64,000 nucleotides of DNA from an uncultured bacterium (lineage in GTDB: Bacteria; Patescibacteriota; Andersenbacteria; UBA10190; CAIZMI01). Of this stretch, positions 4,121 through 58,665 are shown piece after piece. Made by a program: the position numbers and the translations under genes. How positions within the stretch are numbered: the first letter of the stretch is position 1; each line of letters opens with the position of its first letter. The DNA lies in NCBI GenBank assembly GCA_903828055.1, contig CAIKKP010000060.1:1-64000 (forward strand). Reading direction: 5' to 3'. Under the pieces are notes generated by a model. The model searched no databases, had not been told where the DNA came from, and saw nothing but the letters and a program-made list of their open reading frames with translations.

Positions 4121-4235
4121 GGCCTCATCGTCTAACGGCTAGGACGAAGCGTTCTCAACGCTTAAATCGGAGTTCGCCCACGCACCATAAAGGTGCGGGG
4201 CGCCCAGAACCCAACGTGGTTCTTGGGCGATTCTC
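4121..4235 (+). pseudogene. 5' fragment of tRNA-Glu (positions 1-~63) interrupted by a 53-nt double-hairpin insert in the T-loop
   Basis: Identical to intact tRNA-Glu through GGAGTTCG. A 53-nt insert (4177-4229) follows, then ATTCTC, then unrelated sequence. No 3' acceptor strand is present. Confidence 0.75.
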
Positions 4236-4286
4236 TTAGAGGGAATTAATAGACAATCAAAAGAAAACAGGTAAAACTGTAATCAC

Positions 4287-4358
4287 GGCCTCATCGTCTA
4301 ACGGCTAGGACGAAGCGTTCTCAACGCTTAAATCGGAGTTCGATTCTCCGTGAGGCTA
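4287..4358 (+). tRNA. tRNA-Glu (anticodon CTC)
   Basis: Cloverleaf folded by hand. Acceptor GGCCTCA/TGAGGCT (G1:U72), anticodon loop TTCTCAA, T-arm CGGAG-TTCGATT-CTCCG. No encoded CCA. Confidence 0.8.
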
Positions 4359-4625
4359 CTCATTGATTAAGTTTTGCGAAGCAAAACTAATCCAAATGTA
4401 CATAAAACAGCCATCACGACGCGTGAGGGCTGTTTTACACAAGAATCAATGAACTCAAAGCATTACGCCAAGAGGCGGAATGCGACGAGCTACCTTTGTC
4501 TATTTGCGAAACTATCCTATGTACACAAAATGACCAAACATCCCGTTTGGTCATTTTGCACAAGAATCGAAAAACTCCGAGACTCGAGCACCCGACGGTG
4601 CTGAGTCTCGGAGCTACCATGTGAT
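4359..4625 (+). repeat. tRNA 3'-trailer structured element, two tandem diverged units
   Basis: Unit 2 (4516-4620) carries TGTACACAAAATGACCAAAC-loop-GTTTGGTCATTTTGCACAAGAATCGAAAAACTCCGAG plus a terminal CTCCGAG...CTCGGAG hairpin. Unit 1 is a diverged version. Both end in GAGCTACC. Confidence 0.7.
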
Positions 4626-5365: not shown

Positions 5366-7267
5366 TTATCTCGTCGGCGGAATCATATAGTAATTTAAGA
5401 GCTTGCTTGCGAGATCACGAAACATCGGCGCTGCGGTACCGGAAGCGAAACTTAGTCCCTTAGGATTGTCGAGAATAATTAAGACGGCAAATTTTGGTTT
5501 TTCAGATGGCGCAAAACCGAAGAAAGAAATTATTTTTTTATCGGCAGAATAACGGCCTGTTTCCGGATCAACCACCTGCGCCGTACCCGTCTTTCCTCCC
5601 ACGTAATACCCTTTTACCTTCGCCAACCCCGCCACACCATTCTCTACCACCGATGTCATCATCGCCGTAACTTTTGTCGAAGTTTCAGGAGTAACCACTT
5701 GTCTTATCAATCTAACCTGTGTCTTTTCCGTGTTTCCATTTGAATTACGAATTTCTTTAATAATATGCGGTTCTAACAACTGACCACCATTTATCACTGC
5801 CATCGCCGAGACCAACATCTGCATTGGAGTAACAACAACACCTTGTCCAAAACTTATCGTATCCAAATTGACTTCCGACCAAGTATCGGGAAGAGGTAAT
5901 GCGCGCGCGGCCTCACCCGTTAACGGCAATCCGGTTTTGTCACCTATTCCAAAATGACGCAACCCTTCGAATAACTTTTCCGCCCCAATTTTTTGCGCAA
6001 CCCACACCATACCAACGTTATTGGACTGCTCAAGAATTTGTGTCATTGATATTACACCCAAATGTTTTCCATCAAACGTATTAATAATATATTTGCCAAC
6101 CTTTAATGGTCCGGAATCATTCATTGTGGTATTTGGATCAATCAACCCCAAATCCATTGCAATCGACATTACCAAAGGCTTAAAAATTGACCCCGGTTCA
6201 AAAACATCAAGAAGCGCGTTATTCCGCATAACACTTACATCACGAATATCACCAAAATAATTTGGATCAAAAGTCGGATAATTAGCAATTGCTTTTATCT
6301 CCCCCGTATAAGGATCAGCAACAATAATACTGGCCTTTTCCGCGCCAAACTTATCTCTTCCCTGCTTGGCTATCTGTTCGGCGTATGTTTGCACAATCCG
6401 ATCGATCGTTAAAACAATATCCGCACCATCTTCTGCCGGCTTTAAGTCCATACTACTAACTGAAATCAATCTTCCAATCACATCACGCTCCGCCTCCATA
6501 AAACCGGAATTACCCTGCAATATTTCATTCATTGCCCCCTCAATGCCATACTCGCCTTTAATATTTAATCCATCCTGTCTCACATAACCCAATACTTGTG
6601 CCGCTAATGTTTGCTCCGGATAATATCGATCATAAAATTTTTCAAACCGTATTTCAGGAAGATTCAAATTCTTAAGATCGTTAATAAGCTGATCGTCAAA
6701 TCTTTGATAAGAAGCTATCAACGGTTCGTATGGATCTTCTTTATTACTCAATTTATTTTTCAATCTATTTTGAATATCTTGTTTTTCCTGTTCTGCCTGT
6801 TTAAGCACTTCCTCTCCAACTTTTTTTTCAGTATTATTTTTTCTAACCTCAATCTCTTCCACTGTATACTGTCCGGAGTCGTCTAAAAGGCCTTGCCTGC
6901 GAACAACTTCTCGTTGATTATAACGCCATAATATTTCCGATAATACTCCTACCGTATAATCTAAATTTTTTATTGCGCGAGGTTCTACATACGCTGATTC
7001 CGCCTGTCTTGTTGTGGCAACCGAGAATGGTTCCGCATCGTCCTTTTCAGACAACAAAATACTCCCCCGTCGTGGCAACAGGTCGGACGATCTAGTCCGT
7101 TGATTTTCCGCCAAGGTTGTGTATTTCTTAGTTTGCAATATCTGCAAATATCCAAGCCTTAATAATAACGCAATAAAAACTACAAAAACAAAAATAAAAA
7201 GTAATCGAAAACGATCTCCCTTTTTTTTCAACACATTTTTATCGCGTTTTATGGGCGGTTCATGCAT
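5366..7267 (-). CDS. ftsI: penicillin-binding protein 2 / FtsI-type transpeptidase
   Basis: N-terminal TM segment, SIFKP (SxxK) and KTGTA motifs, and its position after ftsL in the dcw cluster. Confidence 0.88.
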   Translation of the reverse strand: MHEPPIKRDKNVLKKKGDRFRLLFIFVFVVFIALLLRLGYLQILQTKKYTTLAENQRTRSSDLLPRRGSILLSEKDDAEPFSVATTRQAESAYVEPRAIKNLDYTVGVLSEILWRYNQREVVRRQGLLDDSGQYTVEEIEVRKNNTEKKVGEEVLKQAEQEKQDIQNRLKNKLSNKEDPYEPLIASYQRFDDQLINDLKNLNLPEIRFEKFYDRYYPEQTLAAQVLGYVRQDGLNIKGEYGIEGAMNEILQGNSGFMEAERDVIGRLISVSSMDLKPAEDGADIVLTIDRIVQTYAEQIAKQGRDKFGAEKASIIVADPYTGEIKAIANYPTFDPNYFGDIRDVSVMRNNALLDVFEPGSIFKPLVMSIAMDLGLIDPNTTMNDSGPLKVGKYIINTFDGKHLGVISMTQILEQSNNVGMVWVAQKIGAEKLFEGLRHFGIGDKTGLPLTGEAARALPLPDTWSEVNLDTISFGQGVVVTPMQMLVSAMAVINGGQLLEPHIIKEIRNSNGNTEKTQVRLIRQVVTPETSTKVTAMMTSVVENGVAGLAKVKGYYVGGKTGTAQVVDPETGRYSADKKIISFFGFAPSEKPKFAVLIILDNPKGLSFASGTAAPMFRDLASKLLNYYMIPPTR

Positions 7268-13690: not shown

Positions 13691-13706
13691 GGTTATTATT
13701 TTTTAG

Positions 13707-13778
13707 TGGGCGCAGAAGGTATCGAACCTTCGACCTTTGCAATGTGAATGCAACGCTCTACCACTGAGCTATGCGCCC
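13707..13778 (-). tRNA. tRNA-Val (anticodon CAC)
   Basis: Minus-strand read GGGCGCATAGCTCAGTGGTAGAGCGTTGCATTCACATTGCAAAGGTCGAAGGTTCGATACCTTCTGCGCCCA, a canonical cloverleaf. Confidence 0.9.
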
Positions 13779-13819
13779 GAAAAATTATAAACTCATTAAT
13801 TTTCTAAAATACATTTTTT

Positions 13820-13933
13820 TGGTATCGCCCAGTACCACGTTGGGTACTGGGCGCCCCGCACCTTTATGGTGCGTGGGCGAACCTTCGACCTTTGCAATGT
13901 GAATGCAACGCTCTACCACTGAGCTATGCGCCC
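13820..13933 (-). pseudogene. 5' fragment of tRNA-Val (positions 1-~62) interrupted by the same 53-nt double-hairpin insert in the T-loop
   Basis: Identical to tRNA-Val up to GGTTCG. The insert (13825-13877, 50/53 identical to the Glu-locus insert) follows, then ATACC and an AT-rich 45-nt spacer before the intact tRNA. Confidence 0.75.
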
Positions 13934-15117
13934 TAATTCTTCCCCAGTTCCGCGTCAATATAGCGTTCGATTGCCGGCACGTCAAACCTTTCCGTGGGAT
14001 GATTACAGAACCTTTCTAATGCTTCCCAACCAACCCTTACTTCATTCAACGGACTCCCGCCAAAGATCGCTCGCAAAATCGGAACCGCCCAGTTTACTTC
14101 ATAGGTAATCGTGCGCCATGATGAAATTTTGCTATTGGCAATCACTTTCCCAAGCAAAGACCAATACCGTGTTCTGTTAGGAATTTTTACCGGCGCATTG
14201 TGATTATCATCTCCCAAGCTCCACTCCGAAAATAGCTCTCCGGTCTTATTTCTTGCTGTTCGCGGGTGATTAACATGAATATGCACAAACCAAGGTAGCA
14301 GTTCCGCCAAATCCTTTTCCAGAGCATCATAATTGCCACTATAAGTCAGCAAGGCATGCGCTGGATCAAGCGTACAACCAAGCACACCACGCTCAATCCA
14401 CTCCACGCCAATCTGCGATAGAACGTCTTTTAAACTTCCAAAAAATGTACCAATTTCTTCTTCACCCGGATGTGAATAGGTATTTTCAAGTGAAATACAC
14501 ACTCCAGCAGTAAGCGCGTCCCCCATTACCGACTTAATAGAAGAAACAGTCGCCTGAATTGACTCTTCCCTTCCAATACCCTTCTCTCTTCGCCCACAAT
14601 GCAAAACGTAAATGATCGGATGCTCAATCTTAAAAACCTTTCTTAACTCCCCCAACAAATTAATTTCCCGTTGCATATTTCGAATATTTTGCTTAAGAAT
14701 TCGAGGATCACCGGGGTTCATGAAAAAACGTGACAGCAAAAAACCCTGACCGGCGTAACCACCATGAAAAGACCTTAAATCAGTCATTCCGTACCCCTCC
14801 AGAGTTTTTTTAAATTCATTTACAACCTCTTGTCGAATCTCCGATTTTATATTGAACCAATTAAAAAACGGCAGAAATATTTCAACATTTTTCTCCATTA
14901 AGCGTGAAAGCCCAACAGCCTTTTTGTGATCAACAAAAAAACCTACCACCCTCAAAAAACGAGCCAAAAAAGACGTGATACAAATTTTATAAGGCTCTTG
15001 CGCGAGGTTGCCGGGAGAGAGAAACTGCGTCTCGTTCAAAAGATTAGGGCTTGGTAATAAATAAACACTCCATATTTTGTTCAATACGCTCTGAATACGA
15101 GTGTTTTGATTGAACAA
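13933..15117 (-). CDS. sugar-phosphate isomerase/epimerase-like TIM-barrel protein (xylose isomerase-like fold)
   Basis: ISLEN and HIHVNH metal-site-like motifs. The annotated N-terminus overlaps the MITE-like element, so the true start is probably downstream (e.g. the MEKNVEIF Met near 14901). Confidence 0.4.
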   Translation of the reverse strand: MFNQNTRIQSVLNKIWSVYLLPSPNLLNETQFLSPGNLAQEPYKICITSFLARFLRVVGFFVDHKKAVGLSRLMEKNVEIFLPFFNWFNIKSEIRQEVVNEFKKTLEGYGMTDLRSFHGGYAGQGFLLSRFFMNPGDPRILKQNIRNMQREINLLGELRKVFKIEHPIIYVLHCGRREKGIGREESIQATVSSIKSVMGDALTAGVCISLENTYSHPGEEEIGTFFGSLKDVLSQIGVEWIERGVLGCTLDPAHALLTYSGNYDALEKDLAELLPWFVHIHVNHPRTARNKTGELFSEWSLGDDNHNAPVKIPNRTRYWSLLGKVIANSKISSWRTITYEVNWAVPILRAIFGGSPLNEVRVGWEALERFCNHPTERFDVPAIERYIDAELGKN

Positions 15118-33770: not shown

Positions 33771-33903
33771 GTTTATGATCCAAGTATAACCCAAAAGCTT
33801 GGTTCTAGACGATTCGCAAAAAATCAGGCATGCTAGCGAACATAGATTGACGCAAAGTTCGTCTTTGCGAGGTCGCATGCAAGCGTGCCGAAGCAATCTG
33901 TAA

Positions 33904-33975: not shown

Positions 33976-34101
33976 CTCGAGATTTGTTTCGCTCTGCGAA
34001 ACTATAAAATGTACACAAAATGACCAAACAGGACGTTTGGTCATTTTGCACAAGAATCGAAGAACTCCGAAAATACGCGTCAACAGACACGTATCTTCGG
34101 A
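33976..34101 (+). repeat. tRNA 3'-trailer structured element (copy after tRNA-Thr GGT)
   Basis: Starts at CTCGAG immediately after the discriminator base. GTTTCGC/GCGAAAC hairpin, then the 14-bp hairpin CAAAATGACCAAAC/GTTTGGTCATTTTG, then CTCCGAA...TTCGGAG. Confidence 0.75.
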
Positions 34102-34203
34102 GCCCTTCAATAACTTGCCAAACAAAAAATTATTACATTATTTTCTAAGTATTTTAATTTATATATGTTTGTTGTACTGTGAATCACAGAGAGGAGTTCA
34201 TTT

Positions 34204-34699: not shown

Positions 34700-34941
34700 T
34701 TGAATTAGTTTTGCTTCGAACACTAAAGGTAGCTCCGAAATTTTGCGTCTCTTGTCGCAATCTTTCGGAGTTCTTTAACTCTTGTGCAATAACCCTGTTA
34801 TCACCCGAAGGGCTCCGAAACTTTGCGCATCCGAACGCAAATATTTCGGAGTTCTTCGATTATTGTGCAAAACGACTCAACGGGATGTTGAGTCGTTTTG
34901 TGTACATCTTTTTTGTTTCGCGAAGCGAAACTTATCTCGAG
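34700..34941 (-). repeat. tRNA 3'-trailer structured element (copy after tRNA-Thr TGT) plus a partial second unit
   Basis: Minus-strand read CTCGAGATAAGTTTCGCTTCGCGAAAC...TGTACACAAAACGACTCAAC-ATCCC-GTTGAGTCGTTTTGCACAATAATCGAAGAACTCCGAA...TTTCGGAG, then a degenerate repeat ending GAGCTACC. Confidence 0.7.
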
Positions 34942-39858: not shown

Positions 39859-39924
39859 TTATATTTTAATTTTACACATCGTTCCGAGTATTTCCGGAAC
39901 GATGTTTTCGTAAATGTTTTGTTC

Positions 39925-40075
39925 CTTCGTCATCCTTGCGAACCCCGCACCCTTGTGGTGCGTGGGCGAAACAATCTCCCGCGTCTTGTTTTTTTGAGAT
40001 TGCCACGCCTCGCCCATTCTAAAGAATGGTCGATGGCTTGCAAAGACGACGCTTGGCCCTCGCTTTATTTAAGTT
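39925..40075. repeat. multi-hairpin intergenic repeat element, copy A (with nested small hairpin module)
   Basis: GCGAA-[CCCCGCACCCTTGTGGTGCGTGGG]-CGAAACAATCTC..GAGATTGCCACGCCTCGCCCATTCTAAAGAATGGTCGATGGCTTGCAAAGACGACG. The nested hairpin matches the first hairpin of the tRNA T-loop insert. Confidence 0.65.
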
Positions 40076-45214: not shown

Positions 45215-45335
45215 GTAGTCGGGCGAGGCGAAGCAATCTCACCAAAATTACGACGCGGGAAATTGCCACGCCTTGCCCTCCGCCAGTTGGCGGACTCACG
45301 AATGGTCAATGGCTTGCAAAGACAACGGCAACTAG
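45215..45335. repeat. multi-hairpin intergenic repeat element, copy B
   Basis: GGGCGAGGCGAAGCAATCTC...GAAATTGCCACGCCTTGCCC...CACGAATGGTCAATGGCTTGCAAAGACAACG. The second hairpin loop is replaced relative to copies A and C. Confidence 0.65.
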
Positions 45336-46123
45336 TTCCCTGCTGGCATGGCAGGATTCTGTAAATCGCGAATATCCTGAATCCCTTGTCGTTGTTGAAT
45401 CGCATCCGACAAAAAGACATTTACTTCCGGAACAACTTTAAAATCCGACACCGTTGCCCCCTTATTTAACGGCCACTGCGCGGTAAACTCGCGACGCTCC
45501 GCCGACAAGAACGCGCCCATAAAAGTCTTACTCGCGCCAATCATTTCACCCTGCGCGTCCAAACCGACAATAGTCACTTCCACGCGCGTATAATCAACAT
45601 TACTTTGATTAGCAAGCAATCCCTTCAACTGAAAAGTATCAATTGTAGGACCTGAAATAATATTCGTCGGCTTATTAATCAATACAATTTCCGGTGGCGC
45701 GAAAGTACTATCAACAAACACCCACTGCGGATTAATTACTTCTAATGTTGCGGTGGCCCCCGCCGGAATATCATAATTAAATGCCGTCAAATATTTTTGA
45801 TCACTTGGCAAGATAAATGATTCGCCTGTTACAATCTGCGGATTTTGACTGTTAGCGGAAATTGTAAACTTATACTGAAAACGTACCGCCCCCGCGTTTG
45901 GATTTGGATTTCGCAGTGTTCCAACCAAATCACCCTTTCCGGGAGTGGTAGCAATAATTTTTGTCGCAATCACCTGCAACGGTAATGCAGTCTTGGGAGT
46001 TGGCGGCGCAGCCGCCGGCGGTGTGTAAGTCAACCAAAAAATCAGTCCGGCAAGCGAACCCCAAAAACCAAAGAAGATACACGCAATCACTATTTGTTTT
46101 ATTGTTCGGTGTTTGAGAACCAT
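45332..46123 (-). CDS. secreted/membrane-anchored hypothetical protein
   Basis: N-terminal TM segment, Pro/Ala-rich linker, and a strand-rich domain. Confidence 0.45.
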   Translation of the reverse strand: MVLKHRTIKQIVIACIFFGFWGSLAGLIFWLTYTPPAAAPPTPKTALPLQVIATKIIATTPGKGDLVGTLRNPNPNAGAVRFQYKFTISANSQNPQIVTGESFILPSDQKYLTAFNYDIPAGATATLEVINPQWVFVDSTFAPPEIVLINKPTNIISGPTIDTFQLKGLLANQSNVDYTRVEVTIVGLDAQGEMIGASKTFMGAFLSAERREFTAQWPLNKGATVSDFKVVPEVNVFLSDAIQQRQGIQDIRDLQNPAMPAGN

Positions 46124-46999: not shown

Positions 47000-47115
47000 C
47001 ATTGCGAACCATCGCTTTCAAGCGAGGCGAAGAAATCTCTTCAACTTTCAACACTGGAGATTGCCACGCCTTGCCCATTCTCACGAATGGTCAATGGCTC
47101 GCAAAGACGACGTTA
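47000..47115. repeat. multi-hairpin intergenic repeat element, copy C (upstream of dnaE)
   Basis: CAAGCGAGGCGAAGAAATCTC...GAGATTGCCACGCCTTGCCCATTCTCACGAATGGTCAATGGCTCGCAAAGACGACG. Confidence 0.65.
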
Positions 47116-47143
47116 AATATTTTTCTTCATGGGGATTCTAAAA

Positions 47144-54013: not shown

Positions 54014-55018
54014 ATGAATACATATCAACCAGCCCCAAAACCACTCCTAACAATCATGGGCCCAACCGCATCAGGCAAGACCCAATTGTCTTTAGTGTTG
54101 GCCGAGCAATTCCAGGGAGAAATTATTTCTGCCGACTCGCGTCAGGTTTATTTTGGCATGAATATTGGCACGGACAAAATTGTTTCACGGGGAAAAATTG
54201 CCAGTTCGCCACTTGAACCGATTGAATACAATTCAATGCCCCACTACCTTATCGATACAATTACACCAAACCAACCATATTCGGCAGCGGATTTTGTAAA
54301 CGATGCAACAAAAGTGATCGCGAAAATTCATGAGAACAACCACCTACCGATTGTAATCGGTGGAACGGGTTTTTATATTCGCGCACTTACCGAGAAGAAG
54401 AACTTTGCATCAGTACCGCCGGATTTTGTTTTTAGAGAATGGGCAAACAAACAACCAGTGGAAAATCTGGCGAATGATTTACTTCAAAAAGATCCGATAT
54501 TGGCCGAGCGTATTGATTTAAAAAATCCAAGACGAGTAATTCGAGCTTTAGAGATAGCAAACTATGCGTCGTCTTTGCGAGGCCGCCCGCAGGCGAGCCG
54601 AAGCAATCTCCCGAGTTCCGCGTCCGCTGGGGCAATTCATGAATTTCCCCTACACGAGACCGCATTACCACCAACGCCTGATTTTAATATTCTCAAAATC
54701 GCCATCCATCGCCAACCCGAAAATTTGCGCGACCTCATCACTCAGCGCGTCGACAAACAACTCGAATTAGGACTCGTAGAAGAAATAAGAACCCTGATAA
54801 AACAATACGGCGAGCAGGCGCCGGGCCTTCAAGCAATCGCCTACCGCGAACTTTTTCCATTTCTGCGTGGCGAAGAATCGTTGGAAGCAGGAAGACAAAA
54901 AGTTATCAATGCCAACTGGCAATACTCAAGACGACAATTAACTTGGCTCAAGAAAGAACCCAACATTGTCTGGATTGAAAATGAAGAAGAAGCGATTGAA
55001 TTGGTAAAATCTTGGTAA
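54014..55018 (+). CDS. miaA: tRNA dimethylallyltransferase
   Basis: P-loop IMGPTASGKTQLSL and DSRQVY motif. Contains an insertion of about 20-35 aa derived from the multi-hairpin repeat family. Confidence 0.88.
   Translation: MNTYQPAPKPLLTIMGPTASGKTQLSLVLAEQFQGEIISADSRQVYFGMNIGTDKIVSRGKIASSPLEPIEYNSMPHYLIDTITPNQPYSAADFVNDATKVIAKIHENNHLPIVIGGTGFYIRALTEKKNFASVPPDFVFREWANKQPVENLANDLLQKDPILAERIDLKNPRRVIRALEIANYASSLRGRPQASRSNLPSSASAGAIHEFPLHETALPPTPDFNILKIAIHRQPENLRDLITQRVDKQLELGLVEEIRTLIKQYGEQAPGLQAIAYRELFPFLRGEESLEAGRQKVINANWQYSRRQLTWLKKEPNIVWIENEEEAIELVKSW
54565..54660. repeat. repeat-family segment (copy D) embedded in frame inside miaA
   Basis: CGTCGTCTTTGCGAG...GCGAGCCGAAGCAATCTCCCG... matches the ends of elements A, B and C. 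It encodes the SSLRGRPQASRSNLPSSASAGAIHEF insert. Confidence 0.55.
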
Positions 55019-55234: not shown

Positions 55235-56053
55235 TCATGCGGGAACCGACGACGTTCTCCTGAGCCTGGCGAAGTTTTCCCAAGCCTCATCACGTTTCAA
55301 TTTGACCAAAACCGCATCCGGCCCGCCCAAAGACAAGACCTTGGTCCATTCTGCAGTTTCTTGAATAGCGCATTCTTCTGCCACACGAATATCGCCCAAT
55401 TTCTCAAAAATCCCCGATTTCGTGCGGTACAGATTGGCTAGGTGATGGCTACCCTTCCCATCACAATCAATTTTGTACCTACTCATCGCCACCTCCAGAA
55501 GTCCCAATGCCATAGCGACATTTTCAAGACCCAGCGGGTCACCGATGTAAACCTGCGCCGCGTCACGGAACAAATTGGCGACCTCCACCCCTTCCTGCCC
55601 AATGATAGCCTGAAGGGTATTCAACATCGGATCATAGTTTCTCCAAAAATGGTAATTTTGATCACCCGCAAAATCGACAAACGCGCGCGCAACTGCCAAC
55701 CGGTCAATGATTCTTCCCGATTCATTACTACATAACACCCTACCGGACAATTCATACCGATAATCCGCCAGTAGGTACAACTTACACAACAATGCCCACT
55801 GGTCTTCACCCGCCGCTACGGCGTTTTTCATCGCTTCGGTAAAACGACCGAGTCGATAATGACACCAGGCTGCCCAACCAAGCGCTTCACTTATTGGATT
55901 TTGACCACCGGCCATCAGCACTTCCAACTGTGACAAAGCGCCGGCATAATCTTTTTCGTTAAAAAGCCGTTCGATTTCGGCAAATTTGTTCTCGTCCGAC
56001 ATGATTATTCTCCCGTGAAAATGAACACGTTTCGACCGTAAACATCCAAACAA
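55235..56053 (-). CDS. TPR-like hypothetical protein, paralog 1
   Basis: About 40% identical to 56260..57021. Both start MSDENK(F/Y)A. Confidence 0.5.
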   Translation of the reverse strand: MFGCLRSKRVHFHGRIIMSDENKFAEIERLFNEKDYAGALSQLEVLMAGGQNPISEALGWAAWCHYRLGRFTEAMKNAVAAGEDQWALLCKLYLLADYRYELSGRVLCSNESGRIIDRLAVARAFVDFAGDQNYHFWRNYDPMLNTLQAIIGQEGVEVANLFRDAAQVYIGDPLGLENVAMALGLLEVAMSRYKIDCDGKGSHHLANLYRTKSGIFEKLGDIRVAEECAIQETAEWTKVLSLGGPDAVLVKLKRDEAWENFARLRRTSSVPA

Positions 56054-56168
56054 CCGTCATATTTAAATATCACGGATACGGATTTTTGGCAAGAGAGAGA
56101 CGTGATTATGATATACGATTTATGATTTATGAAGGACGAATGTTTCGCGCCGTCGATTCATCAATCAT
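56051..56168. promoter_or_regulatory. 118-nt conserved promoter block, copy a (117/118 identical to 57071..57188)
   Basis: On the minus strand it contains TTGCCA, a 17-nt spacer and TATTTAAAT, plus GATTTATGATTTATGA direct repeats. Confidence 0.6.
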
Positions 56169-56195
56169 CATTCATTATTCGTCATTCATATAAAA

Positions 56196-56259: not shown

Positions 56260-57021
56260 TCACTTAGTTGCTTGCTGTACGAGTCGTTCGAGCCGTAAAG
56301 CGTGTCCAATGACACCTACACGACAATCCCTATATCCCTCATTTTGCGGATCATGCTGAATTGCTATCAACCACAACTTAGCTGATTTATTTGCAACTTG
56401 GTAAGCCGAAGGAACGTCACCGACGACTTCCATCACCTTACTCTTCCAAAACAGCGCTTCGGCCCGGTGGTGCGCGTTTTCGTCTGCGATGCCGTACTTC
56501 ATGATTGCGATTTCAAGTAGCCCAAGAGCAATAAAGAAATCGGCACTTGTAGTTGCATTATCCGCACATACCCGCGAGGCATCACGGAACAGGTGGCCAA
56601 CTTCGACCCCCTCATCCGGAGCTAACACAGAAACGTGAGCCAACATCGTGTTGTTATCTCGCCAGAAGACATTGTTCGGATCACGTGCAAAATCAATGAA
56701 AGCTCGTGCAATCACAACAAAATCACTAATCCTTGCCAGAGTCTCATGTACTTCCGTTTTGCTGACACTTTCATACCGGCAATCCGCTAACACATATGCT
56801 TTGCAAAGCAACGCTCTTTGGTTATTATCAGTGACACGATGCAGCACTTCGACTGCCTCTGCCAGATTTCCTAACCGAAAGTTACACCAACCAGCCCAAG
56901 CAAAATCCTCGTTGGCAAAACCGTCAACAGTCGCATAGGTCTCCAACTGACGTAAAGCCAAAATGTAGTTGCCTTTGTCGTAAAGATTCTTTACGATAGC
57001 ATACTTGTTCTCGTCCGACAT
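56260..57021 (-). CDS. TPR-like hypothetical protein, paralog 2
   Basis: See 55235..56053. Confidence 0.5.
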   Translation of the reverse strand: MSDENKYAIVKNLYDKGNYILALRQLETYATVDGFANEDFAWAGWCNFRLGNLAEAVEVLHRVTDNNQRALLCKAYVLADCRYESVSKTEVHETLARISDFVVIARAFIDFARDPNNVFWRDNNTMLAHVSVLAPDEGVEVGHLFRDASRVCADNATTSADFFIALGLLEIAIMKYGIADENAHHRAEALFWKSKVMEVVGDVPSAYQVANKSAKLWLIAIQHDPQNEGYRDCRVGVIGHALRLERLVQQATK

Positions 57022-57070
57022 GACCTATCTCCCATGAAAAAGGACTCGTTTCAAACACAGTGCCCAATAA

Positions 57071-57188
57071 CAACCGTCATATTTAAATATCACGGATACG
57101 GATTTTTGGCAAGAGAGAGACGTGATTATGATATACGATTTATGATTTATGAAGGACGAACGTTTCGCGCCGTCGATTCATCAATCAT
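57071..57188. promoter_or_regulatory. 118-nt conserved promoter block, copy b
   Basis: Near-identical to 56051..56168. Abuts the gatB stop codon. Confidence 0.6.
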
Positions 57189-58665
57189 TAATCGTCAATC
57201 CTAATTCAACGCGAATCATTTCCTGTACTTTTTGGGGATTGGCGCGACCTTTTGTTTCTGCCATCACTTTACCCATCAAAAATTGAACTACTTGCACCTT
57301 ACCGGCACGGGCCTTATCCACTTCCGCAGGATTAGCGTTCAACATGTCTTGAACTATCCGGCGCAATTGATCATCATCGCTCACTTGCCCCAAACCTTTA
57401 TCGGCAACAATATTCGATGGGTCACCGCCTGTTTTTTGCATAATGCGAAAAACTTCCGGCATAGCATTACGATTCACTTCCGCGCGATGCAACATCACAA
57501 TCAATTCCGCAAAATTTTCCGGACTTATTTTTGTATGACTAAAATCAGTTTTTTCTTCAGCAAGAATGTTTCGAAAATCACCCAATAAATAGTTCGCGGC
57601 TAACTTGTACAAACGGACACTGTCTCGTTTTTCTACATCTGAACGCTGTTCATTCCATGCCAAAATTTCTGAAAAAACATTTTCAGTATATGAGGCCAAC
57701 ATTCTGTCTTCCACCATTATTCTAACTTGCTCATCTGGGAGTTGGAACTGACTGATAAAACGCGCTTCTTTTTCATGCGGTAATTCGGGTAATGCTTCAC
57801 GCATTCGTTGAATTAATTCTTCGTCTATTTTTAGTGGCGGTATATCCGGTTCCGGAAAATATCGATAATCAGCTTCGTCTTCTTTCACGCGCTGTTCGAC
57901 TGTTTCTTGCGTCGCATCGTTCCAACCACGTGTGCTTTGTTTTGTTGGCGGATTTCCCTGTTGCCAAAGTTCGGTCTGACGCGCAATTTCATAAGTTAAC
58001 GCACGCTCCACCGCCTTAAAAGAATTAAGATTTTTACACTCCGTTTTGGGATTCAATTTCCCACCTATTTCGCGCATCGAAATATTCGCGTCAACACGAA
58101 GATCGCCATTTTCCATATCCGCATTAGATACACCAATATAACGAATGGTGCGTTGCAGGTCTTCCAAAAAGATTTTTGCTTCTTGCGGTGTTTTAATGTC
58201 CGGTTCAGTCACAATTTCTACCAACGGGGTCCCGGAGCGTGTGTAATCAACCAGTGTTCCACCGTCATGAATATTCTTCGCCGCATCTTCTTCCATGTGC
58301 GCACGTGTAATCCCAATTTCCTTTTCCTCATTGCTCACAAATACTTTTACTTTTCCTTCATAGCAAATTGGCTCGTCATATTGCGAAATCTGATAACCTT
58401 TTGGCAAATCGGGATAGAAGTAGCTTTTGCGGGAAAATGTCGTATGTGAGGCAATTTTGCAGTTTAAGGCCAGCCCCACCTTGATTGCCCACTCCACCGC
58501 TTTTCCATTGAGTACCGGAAGTTGTCCCGGAAAACCCATACAAATTGGGCAAACAAAACGATTCGCCTCCTCCGCTTCAGACACGTTCTTACACCCGCAG
58601 AACATTTTTGACTGGGTGTTGAGATGAACGTGGATTTCAAGGCCTATTACTGGTTCGAGATTCAT
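57181..58665 (-). CDS. gatB: Asp/Glu-tRNA(Asn/Gln) amidotransferase subunit B
   Basis: N-terminal PVIGLEIHVHLNTQSKMFCGC and a C-terminal GatB/YqeY domain. Confidence 0.92.
   Translation of the reverse strand: MNLEPVIGLEIHVHLNTQSKMFCGCKNVSEAEEANRFVCPICMGFPGQLPVLNGKAVEWAIKVGLALNCKIASHTTFSRKSYFYPDLPKGYQISQYDEPICYEGKVKVFVSNEEKEIGITRAHMEEDAAKNIHDGGTLVDYTRSGTPLVEIVTEPDIKTPQEAKIFLEDLQRTIRYIGVSNADMENGDLRVDANISMREIGGKLNPKTECKNLNSFKAVERALTYEIARQTELWQQGNPPTKQSTRGWNDATQETVEQRVKEDEADYRYFPEPDIPPLKIDEELIQRMREALPELPHEKEARFISQFQLPDEQVRIMVEDRMLASYTENVFSEILAWNEQRSDVEKRDSVRLYKLAANYLLGDFRNILAEEKTDFSHTKISPENFAELIVMLHRAEVNRNAMPEVFRIMQKTGGDPSNIVADKGLGQVSDDDQLRRIVQDMLNANPAEVDKARAGKVQVVQFLMGKVMAETKGRANPQKVQEMIRVELGLTIND

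Follow-up and report, generated by a model that had tools for sequence, protein, structure and literature searches.

A two-hairpin insert in the T-loop of disabled tRNA gene copies as a candidate miniature mobile DNA element of Patescibacteria

In a 64,000-nt stretch of the genome of an uncultured member of the Andersenbacteria (Patescibacteriota; assembly GCA_903828055.1, contig CAIKKP010000060.1, positions 1 to 64,000; hereafter the window), the genes for tRNA-Glu and tRNA-Val are each preceded by a disabled copy of their own 5' part, in which two adjacent hairpins interrupt the T-loop. What are these hairpins, and how did the same interruption come to lie beside two different tRNA genes? 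The window contains 6 tRNA genes as predicted by ARAGORN, 2 of which have this architecture, and its gene content is housekeeping (typA, the dcw cluster, ribosomal proteins, dnaE, and prfA). By ribosomal protein S2, the closest named relatives are metagenome-assembled genomes of the Parcubacteria group and of Andersenbacteria (55–62% identity), and one nearer relative lies on a 1.02-Mb contig; the lineage is probably a Patescibacteria/CPR-like bacterium with about 1 Mb of DNA in its genome. The feature is real, recurrent, and polymorphic within a population. From sequence comparison, it is best read as a T-loop-specific, hairpin-type miniature mobile DNA that resembles the REP and PATE elements but is new.

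The tRNA-Glu locus lies on the forward strand. Positions 1 to G57 of tRNA-Glu(CUC), ending in GAGTTCG, form a disabled copy (4121–4176) that is identical at 56/56 positions to 4287–4342 of the intact gene (4287–4359; ARAGORN; Rfam tRNA model, 58.7 bits). This fragment is followed by a 53-nt insert (4177–4229) made of hairpin 1 (hp1, 4177–4200, CCCACGCACC-ATAAA-GGTGCGGGG) and hairpin 2 (hp2, 4201–4229, CGCCCAGAACC-CAACGT-GGTTCTTGGGCG), both assigned by folding, and then by ATTCTC (4230–4235), which corresponds to tRNA-Glu positions 58–63 (T-loop and T-stem), equals 4343–4348 of the intact gene, and ends the fragment, the sequences diverging beyond it. An AT-rich spacer of 51 nt (4236–4286), unique to this tRNA and bearing a −10-like box, leads to the intact gene. 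No second copy of this spacer was found in the window or in the loci fetched from other genomes, apart from a homologous spacer in one relative (L107, see below). The tRNA-Val locus, on the reverse strand, repeats this order: a disabled copy of positions 1 to G57 of tRNA-Val(CAC) (13878–13933, 56/56 identical to 13778–13723), the first G of which is part of the stop codon of the upstream gene; an hp1 shown by comparison to have the same sequence as that of the Glu insert (13854–13877); an hp2 identified by comparison and folding (13826–13853); ATACC, which by comparison with the intact gene corresponds to positions 58–62 and ends the fragment (13821–13825); an AT-rich spacer of 42 nt with TATAAT 6 nt ahead of the intact gene and no kinship with the Glu spacer (13779–13820); and the intact tRNA-Val(CAC) (13706–13778; ARAGORN; Rfam, 73.7 bits). 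The 3' acceptor strand is absent from both fragments. An earlier note on this DNA had described the shared architecture, which we recovered at both genes. Its insert length of 53 nt is right for tRNA-Glu, the Val insert measuring 52 nt (13877–13826), and its spacer length of about 45 nt gives way to the measured 51 and 42 nt.

The 2 hairpins occupy the entire insert and are imperfect, with a bulged A in hp1 and a bulged T in the hp2 of tRNA-Glu. The Glu and Val inserts differ by this bulged T, which is missing from the perfect 11-bp stem of the Val hp2, and by one compensatory A:T to T:A pair in the second stem; they share an exact stretch of 31 nt, for which the chance expectation is 0. That each insert forms two hairpins, as the earlier note had proposed, was borne out by folding (−32.9 and −36.9 kcal/mol, z = −5.2 and −6.6). 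The hp1 stem recurs unchanged in T-loop inserts of other Patescibacteria, hp2 occurs at other loci in 10 sequence variants, all of which keep a 10–12-bp stem by double changes, and an hp1 variant with a C:G to T:A swap is present in L107. Thus, the hairpins are conserved through compensatory change. There is no U-tract downstream of hp2, and no Rfam family matched the insert, whether at gathering thresholds across the window or, for the Glu locus, at E ≤ 10. Scanning the 64 kb with a covariance model trained on nine hp1-hp2 inserts returned 2 full copies and 1 hp1-only copy, and no further copies. The solitary hp1 (39943–39966, reverse strand), which has the loop ACAAG and TTCG on both sides, is nested in a palindromic REP-like repeat, in agreement with the earlier note, and the stretch that contains it (39912–39975) scored 34.9 bits. 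At one locus of another genome (L097, about 993–1052), a further 32 nt have been inserted into the loop of hp2, which shows that the tips of the hairpins can in turn become insertion sites.

Orthologous loci show what the tRNA-Val locus looks like with and without the module, that is, the DNA by which the occupied locus exceeds the empty one. An independently assembled contig (L001) has the same Val architecture as the window base for base, and 2 further assemblies have the same 243-nt gene spacing at this locus, as judged from the spacing and not from the DNA. A third contig (L002) matches the window until it ends inside the tRNA-Val fragment, a break inside a repeat being what is expected at an assembly-graph branch. 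A contig from a sister sample (L109) is 99.96–100% identical to the window over 4 kb, yet its only tRNA-Val is a clean one set directly against the stop codon of the preceding gene, and a piece of 155 nt (56 + 52 + 5 + 42) is lacking. Because the Val module is absent from L109, more than 99.9% identical, and present in the window and L001, it is a presence/absence polymorphism within one population. The single tRNA-Val of L109 occupies the position of the fragment in the window, and in a relative (L005, flanking protein 61% identical, tRNA-Val identical) a single tRNA-Val has nearly the same position, 5 nt past the stop codon. A consensus scan, the only evidence for it, placed a promoter-like site (TTGACG-17-TATATT, 13957–13985, reverse strand) within the 3' end of the upstream gene. 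Transcription from this putative promoter would yield the lone tRNA-Val in the empty allele, but a leader made of fragment and hairpins in the occupied one. Other orthologous Val loci (L007, L114, and L115) carry different small insertions and no intermediate state.

The tRNA-Glu locus was likewise compared in 2 relatives. The first (L105, typA DNA 83% identical) has a single tRNA-Glu and hence an empty site, and the second (L107, GCA_030647555.1, typA DNA 88% identical) has the module, with a fragment identical at 56/56 positions, the same ATTCTC, and a spacer identical to that of the window at 40/54 positions (74%). The double hairpin of this module is different: it is 38 nt long and has only the outer base pairs in common with the window pair. 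Since the module was conserved while its hairpin pair was swapped, the hairpins turn over faster than the duplication and separately from it. The L107 fragment adjoins a flank homologous to the upstream flank of L105, and the 3' end of its intact gene adjoins the ancestral downstream flank. Judged from these alignments, the disabled fragment sits at the ancestral gene position at both loci, and the extra DNA is equivalent to the hairpins, positions 58–63, the spacer, and tRNA positions 1–56 placed inside the T-loop of the ancestral gene, a module of 155–166 nt bounded by 56-nt direct repeats. Simple tandem duplication was rejected: the spacer is not native upstream DNA, as the DNA upstream of the empty Val allele is the coding end of a gene and L105 and L107 have another flank than the spacer upstream of Glu. 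As side observations at this locus, tRNA-Glu is oriented relative to typA in the window (4121–4359) opposite to L105 (2954–3026) and L107 (6722–6950), and the DNA between the tRNA-Glu locus and the penicillin-binding protein gene differs in the window, L105, and L107 alike. Because this interval differs in all three and the orientation is flipped, the region is a local rearrangement hot spot.

Further hosts of the hairpins were sought with a scan for the hp1 stem, whatever its loop, in a single genome of each species, which gave chance matches in high-GC genomes and a coherent set in low-GC uncultivated lineages. The same double hairpin occupies the site between G57 and A58 in no fewer than eight different sequences of tRNA origin, which come from several genomes of Patescibacteria, and the insertion point is uniform in every T-loop case (GGTTCG, hp1, hp2, A.TC.). 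Fragments of tRNA-Gln(CTG) (L083), tRNA-Ser(GGA) (L049), and tRNA-Gln(TTG) (L025) in one genome, bin-405, are laid out as in the window, with 6–8 further tRNA bases after the hairpins, a spacer of 40–57 nt, and then the intact gene, the contig of tRNA-Gln(TTG) ending before any intact copy. Besides such 5' fragments, the hosts include a 3' half that has diverged and lies downstream of tRNA-Arg(CCG) (L047), short 3' remnants that follow tRNA-Arg genes in Portnoybacteria-like contigs (L012 and L097–L104), and, in a metagenome-assembled genome (MAG) of Saccharibacteria (L093), both a T-arm remnant 4 nt upstream of tRNA-Gly(CCC) (L093a) and an old tRNA-Thr(CGT) with a second break, at the anticodon (L093b). 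Among the loci examined, no intact tRNA contained hp1-hp2, and orphan T-arms free of the insert were not seen in the low-GC loci. The insert merely interrupts the sequence between GTTCG and ATTCTC without target duplication, as judged against the adjacent intact tRNA copy rather than against an allele pair differing by the hairpins alone. Because the hairpins also occur in 3' halves and doubly disrupted tRNAs (L047 and L093), and because L107 has a different pair, they seem to move independently of the duplication. Displaced 3' fragments (tRNA-Lys in L049 and tRNA-Gln in L083) start at position 56–57 and the 5' fragments end at 62–65, which gives a common core at about 57–63, like attL and attR. 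The spacers of five modules did not align with each other beyond their AT-richness and had no other copies, and a shared spacer as part of one element was therefore discarded.

These results bear on what the earlier note had proposed. Its targeted process is supported by the recurrence of a single site in at least eight sequences and by the empty orthologous sites of both loci. The further tRNAs with fragment and insert that it had proposed to look for in related genomes were found (Gln and Ser in bin-405, and Glu in L107 with its different hairpin pair), and the orthologous loci without the insert were compared (L109 and L005 for Val, L105 for Glu). Of the 2 outcomes it had named as fatal, an assembly artefact is countered by the identity of L001 and by related modules in other genomes, and restriction to these 2 genes by the hp1-hp2-bearing remnants of Gln (two), Ser, Gly, Thr, and Arg. 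A small element recognizing GTTCGA remains the best fit; it may also carry or duplicate the tRNA 5' part, but the hairpins of L047, L093, and L107 speak for a movement independent of the duplication. The position of the fragment at the ancestral gene site, the polymorphism of the module within one population, and the reach of the phenomenon across the candidate phyla radiation go beyond that note.

We regard it as somewhat better than an even chance that the insert represents a small piece of non-autonomous mobile DNA, which has the T-loop as its target and survives in disabled tRNA copies beside rebuilt genes. The element of two GC-rich hairpins would integrate between G57 and A58, directly 3' of TTCG, without making a target-site duplication. 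Integration would kill the tRNA gene, and the element would be visible only in disabled copies that act as safe havens; its occurrence only in dead tRNA pieces would thus reflect survivorship, because the target lies within essential genes. The old 5' parts of tRNA-Glu and tRNA-Val would have been displaced by a short piece made of the AT-rich spacer and tRNA positions 1 to about 63, which would recombine into the T-loop region and rebuild an intact gene downstream, and the resulting module of 155–166 nt would be gained or lost as one unit in the population. The hairpin pair probably moves in single-stranded form, either through a reaction of the IS200/IS605 or REP type (HUH/Y1) or through the action of another hairpin-reading recombinase. 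We infer that the IS200/IS605/REP type is the most likely chemistry because the insert has hairpins at both ends, lies directly 3' of a fixed tetranucleotide, shows no duplication, is cleanly absent from some alleles, and has a target that is itself a hairpin loop, that of the T-arm. The partial duplication would result from a separate site-specific exchange by very small cassettes carrying part of a tRNA, as the common core around 57–63 suggests. Separate events are favored by a narrow balance over one composite event.

Several observations weigh against this proposal. The copy number is low, with two full copies in 64 kb, unlike classical REPs. No allele pair differing by the hairpins alone was found among the orthologous loci, and the Val polymorphism can be explained by homologous deletion between the 56-nt repeats, so it is no proof of transposition; it is also all-or-none, which weighs against two separate events. 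Coupling of both events is favored by the long 5' fragments, since 6/6 carry the double hairpin and end 5–8 nt after it and no hairpin-free long 5' fragment was found. The fragments of the window and L107 are identical at 56/56 positions despite a spacer divergence of 26%, an outcome with a probability of 0.74^56, or about 5e-8, if the fragment were neutral. A composite element explains this identity, but a simpler explanation is gene conversion from the intact gene next to the fragment. Finally, no transposase or integrase was found among 20 window open reading frames (ORFs) scanned singly against Pfam and NCBIfam, which gave housekeeping families or none, nor among the matches listed for a batch of 57 ORFs.

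Much of the same evidence can be accommodated by a composite, self-restoring homing element, a tentative possibility to which we give well under an even chance. This element would consist of hp1-hp2, the T-loop remainder, the promoter-like spacer, and tRNA positions 1–57 and would insert 3' of TTCG in its cognate tRNA, the tRNA 5' part at its end regenerating an intact gene, and excision between TTCG sites or between the 56-nt repeats would reverse the insertion. Its boundaries coincide exactly with the start of hp1 and a TTCG; it accounts for the all-or-none Val polymorphism among near-clonal strains and for hairpins of constant geometry in 6/6 modules of the 5' type; and identical fragments beside diverged spacers would follow if the two tRNA copies took turns in being functional. 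What it leaves unexplained is how each tRNA-specific module arose, since the 5–8 nt after hp2 are tRNA-specific. Moreover, 3' halves and further dead tRNAs contain the hairpin pair without having this layout, the Glu module of L107 has different hairpins, and no free, circular, or ectopic copy of the module was found. If true, it would be a gene-free analogue, of about 160 nt, of a tRNA-integrating genomic island, using single-stranded hairpin chemistry and cycling through the population. Partial tRNA duplication around inserted DNA is also the hallmark of integrative elements, and an archaeal 5' tRNA fragment associated with a recombinase element has been documented (PMC3293823). The modules could accordingly be seen as decayed att remnants of integrase-driven islands that inserted at the T-loop and carried the tRNA 5' part, with the hairpins as an immobile island end, and displaced fragments of the 3' type in the same lineage and a Xer-type tyrosine recombinase beside one site (L012) fit this origin. 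We consider it unlikely: the repeats are only 42–57 nt apart and enclose no ORF in six modules of the 5' type from five different tRNAs, the tRNA bases resume after the hairpins, which hence interrupt the tRNA rather than follow it, and the same hairpins recur at one and the same point of the T-loop in tRNA pieces and genomes that are unrelated.

The remaining explanations need no mobile DNA. Fragment, hairpins, and spacer might form a functional RNA, a 5' leader or small RNA under selection, that governs how the downstream tRNA is processed, stabilized, or expressed. Without a U-tract after hp2, transcripts begun at the upstream promoter-like site could run on into the intact tRNA, and the hairpins are kept by covariation and the fragment identical to the tRNA; but the module is dispensable in near-identical strains and absent from relatives, its hairpins are replaced by unrelated ones in L107, the same hairpins occur in decaying pseudo-tRNAs (L093b and L047), and no Rfam match was obtained, all of which makes a leader function quite improbable. 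Even less credible are intron-containing, split, or permuted tRNA genes with pieces joined at the RNA level. Unusual tRNA introns are found in Patescibacteria, in the form of group I introns at position 35/36 (PMC13011429), and the Val fragment scores 41.3 bits in Rfam as a partial tRNA. Nevertheless, there is no 3' exon beyond the insert, an intact copy of the same tRNA lies 42–51 nt downstream, the insert is far below the size of a group I intron, and no complementary pairing of leader and trailer was seen. The missing acceptor 3' strand and the adjacent intact copy refute all three forms at both loci, as the earlier note had concluded for introns. An assembly artefact or chimera, for which one could invoke the end of L002 inside a repeat and the one assembly without the module, has next to no probability in our judgment, given that the occupied architecture is identical in L001 and the window, that the gene spacing agrees in two further assemblies, that the 56-nt repeat is shorter than the k-mer of 141 of the MEGAHIT contigs, and that related modules exist in other genomes.

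Among known systems, the proposed T-loop element resembles the PATEs, miniature elements derived from IS200/IS605 with its single-strand 'peel and paste' mechanism, in its subterminal imperfect hairpins at both ends, its position 3' of a fixed tetranucleotide (TTCG), and its lack of target duplication and clean loss. With 52–53 nt, it would be the smallest of them, and it differs in that its hairpins abut the ends without guide or linker segments, its target lies inside a tRNA gene, its copy number is very low, and no Y1 transposase was found in the window or the fetched loci. A check for the strand bias of PATEs, whose top strand lies on the lagging-strand template, showed a uniform GC skew in the window, with Val and the ancestral Glu orientation (that of L105 and L107) on the G-rich strand, a sample of two that is confounded with tRNA orientation. 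REPs and REPINs occur as tens to hundreds of extragenic palindromes per genome. Their likeness to hp1-hp2 lies in short GC-rich imperfect palindromes in AT-richer intergenic DNA, and that to the REP/RAYT systems in tandem 30-nt arrays of hp1 in a Firestonebacteria genome that encodes a RAYT-like protein. The REP and REPIN elements and the RAYT (TnpA-REP) transposases (PMC2817692, PMC3116915, and PMC8266576) differ from the insert in several respects. REPs have a conserved GTAG or CGTC tag at one end (PMC3733652), whereas hp1 has neither (hp1 starts with CCCACGC and hp2 with CGCCC) and CGTC is found on a different repeat family of the window. Hp1 and hp2 are mutually unrelated and do not form the inverted doublet of a REPIN, there are only 2–3 copies per 64 kb instead of a high copy number, and the only RAYT-like gene (L060) is linked to another repeat and not to hp1.

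Some integrative elements use the tRNA T-loop as attB by means of tyrosine integrases, for which sublocation classes were reportedly set out by Williams (2002). In the archaeal model, a tRNA gene is disrupted by an integrating element (PMC3293823). The module is like integrative elements in the exact 56-nt direct repeats that bracket the inserted DNA, in the restoration of an intact gene from element-borne sequence, and in breakpoints that cluster in the T-loop and 3' T-stem. It is unlike them in that only about 100 nt are inserted, namely the hairpins and a spacer of 42–51 nt with no ORF, gene, integrase, or cargo, in that the 5' part is supplied instead of the usual 3' part, and in that the displaced copy is interrupted by a hairpin element distinct from the module's other parts. 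IS1397, ISKpn1, and other insertion sequences (IS) insert into the loops of REP hairpins (PMC1525189), and the T-arm, with its 5-bp stem and 7-nt loop, likewise offers the loop of a short DNA hairpin as target; those are, however, full-size IS with transposases and target duplications. Double-hairpin elements of mitochondria are reported to have been described by Paquin et al. in 2000. Mitochondrial double-hairpin elements and mobile GC clusters of fungi are also referred to in PMC4478555. They share with the insert a length of tens of nt, two adjacent GC-rich hairpins, an AT-rich compact genome, and an inferred mobility without an encoded protein, but belong to another domain of life and show no sequence similarity and no T-loop specificity. 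Other assignments were rejected. A tRNA intron, whether group I or bulge-helix-bulge, does not fit only 5–6 tRNA bases after the insert without T-stem completion, nor does a split or permuted gene fit an intact copy with the same anticodon 42–51 nt downstream. An integron attC site was dismissed by inspection, there being two separate hairpins and the junction GTTCGCC in place of GTTRRRY (core RYYYAAC ... GTTRRRY), and, although the 11-6-11 geometry of hp2 is suggestive of an attC or dif-like site, loop lengths range between 5 and 7 and the core motifs are not those of such a site. Literature searches returned no description of hairpin inserts in T-loops.

Which enzyme might move the hairpins? 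No Y1 (HUH) transposase was seen in the 64-kb window or in the fetched Patescibacteria loci, and motif scans of these loci gave a sole candidate, the Xer-type tyrosine recombinase gene of L012 (6141–7211, reverse strand; 236–258 bits with the XerA, XerC, and XerD models), which lies 152 nt upstream of tRNA-Arg(TCT) and its hp1-hp2-bearing T-arm remnant. Nothing connects this gene to the element, no such gene was seen near the other insert sites, and it was rejected as mobilizer. In the MAG of Firestonebacteria, hp1 forms head-to-tail arrays of 30-nt units consisting of TTTA and hp1 (L075 5246–5361, L096, and L053), and the same genome encodes a RAYT-like Y1 transposase (L060 6719–7429, reverse strand; NF047646, 76.6 bits; PF01797). 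This gene is flanked by a different inverted repeat, GGGGACAGCGACTTTT, which gives it no tie to the element, and it was likewise set aside. The insert had no match in phage and plasmid collections or viral contigs, and a lone viral spacer match is due to chance and lies in a coding region, which led us to discard a phage, plasmid, or virus origin.

Few sequences in biology are as strongly conserved as the GTTCGA T-loop. An element that reads it would find its target in any genome but has to leave its host alive, and the solution at these loci would be its confinement to disabled tRNA copies beside rebuilt genes. The insert thereby joins three topics that are mostly considered separately: hairpin miniature elements of the REP and PATE kind, tRNA genes as recombination hot spots, and the origin of fragmented tRNA genes. 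Such small-scale plasticity, with polymorphism inside one population, is unexpected in candidate-phyla-radiation genomes of roughly 1 Mb. Its signature can be used by annotators for pseudo-tRNA calls, and the enzyme, if found, would be a compact single-strand recombinase with a defined target of 4–6 nt.

Other features were noted around the tRNA genes. C34 isoacceptors make up 6/8 of the tRNAs with a hairpin-bearing remnant (Glu CTC, Val CAC, Gln CTG, Gly CCC, Thr CGT, and Arg CCG), which in this small sample hints that a U34 partner could read the C34 codons and temporary gene loss be tolerated. In the Saccharibacteria MAG (L093 3975–3745, reverse strand; CAZCTL010000055), the old tRNA-Thr(CGT) is split after the TTCG of the anticodon loop (35/36) by an intact tRNA-Thr(CGT) with perfect 17-bp inverted repeats on both sides; 35/36 is the unusual group I intron site of Patescibacteria, but this insert is only about 130 nt long. 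Short 5' tRNA fragments of 12–14 nt that end in the D-loop (..TAGCTCA) lie upstream of intact tRNA-Val, tRNA-Arg, and tRNA-Lys genes: at L003 4123–4136, where the fragment forms the final codons of the upstream gene; in L012 upstream of tRNA-Arg TCT (5917–5989); and at L049 2344–2355, where it is paired with an inverted copy.

Two repeat families were also seen. The first, of 75–150 nt, has a bidirectional terminator-like hairpin (A-tract, stem, T-tract) and starts directly 3' of several tRNA genes; it was found in the window at 4360–4500, 4505–4580, 33977–34110, 31018–31118, and 34728–34907, and elsewhere at L003 4300–4440 and L049 2536–2660. It follows tRNA-Glu (two in tandem) and tRNA-Thr, lies beside tRNA-Trp and tRNA-Thr-TGT, and in relatives comes after tRNA-Val and tRNA-Lys; the L049 copy is located between the intact tRNA-Lys and a displaced 3' fragment starting at G57. 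The second consists of CGTC-tagged REP-like units, CGTCTTTGCGAGcc-[variable hairpin]-ggCGAAGCAATCT, at 33859–33899, 39943–40061, 45245–45337, 47043–47122, and 54569–54609 of the window and at L003 4142–4190, which occur singly (ending 4 nt short of tRNA-Thr) or in palindromic pairs, and the central hairpin of which varies by copy and is hp1 in one of them. Elsewhere in the window, an exact 35-nt repeat (145–179 and 1327–1361) lies on either side of the region upstream of typA, and 2 neighboring paralogous genes (55235–56053 and 56260–57021) have 5' regions that are 81–94% identical (55980–56188 versus 56999–57208).

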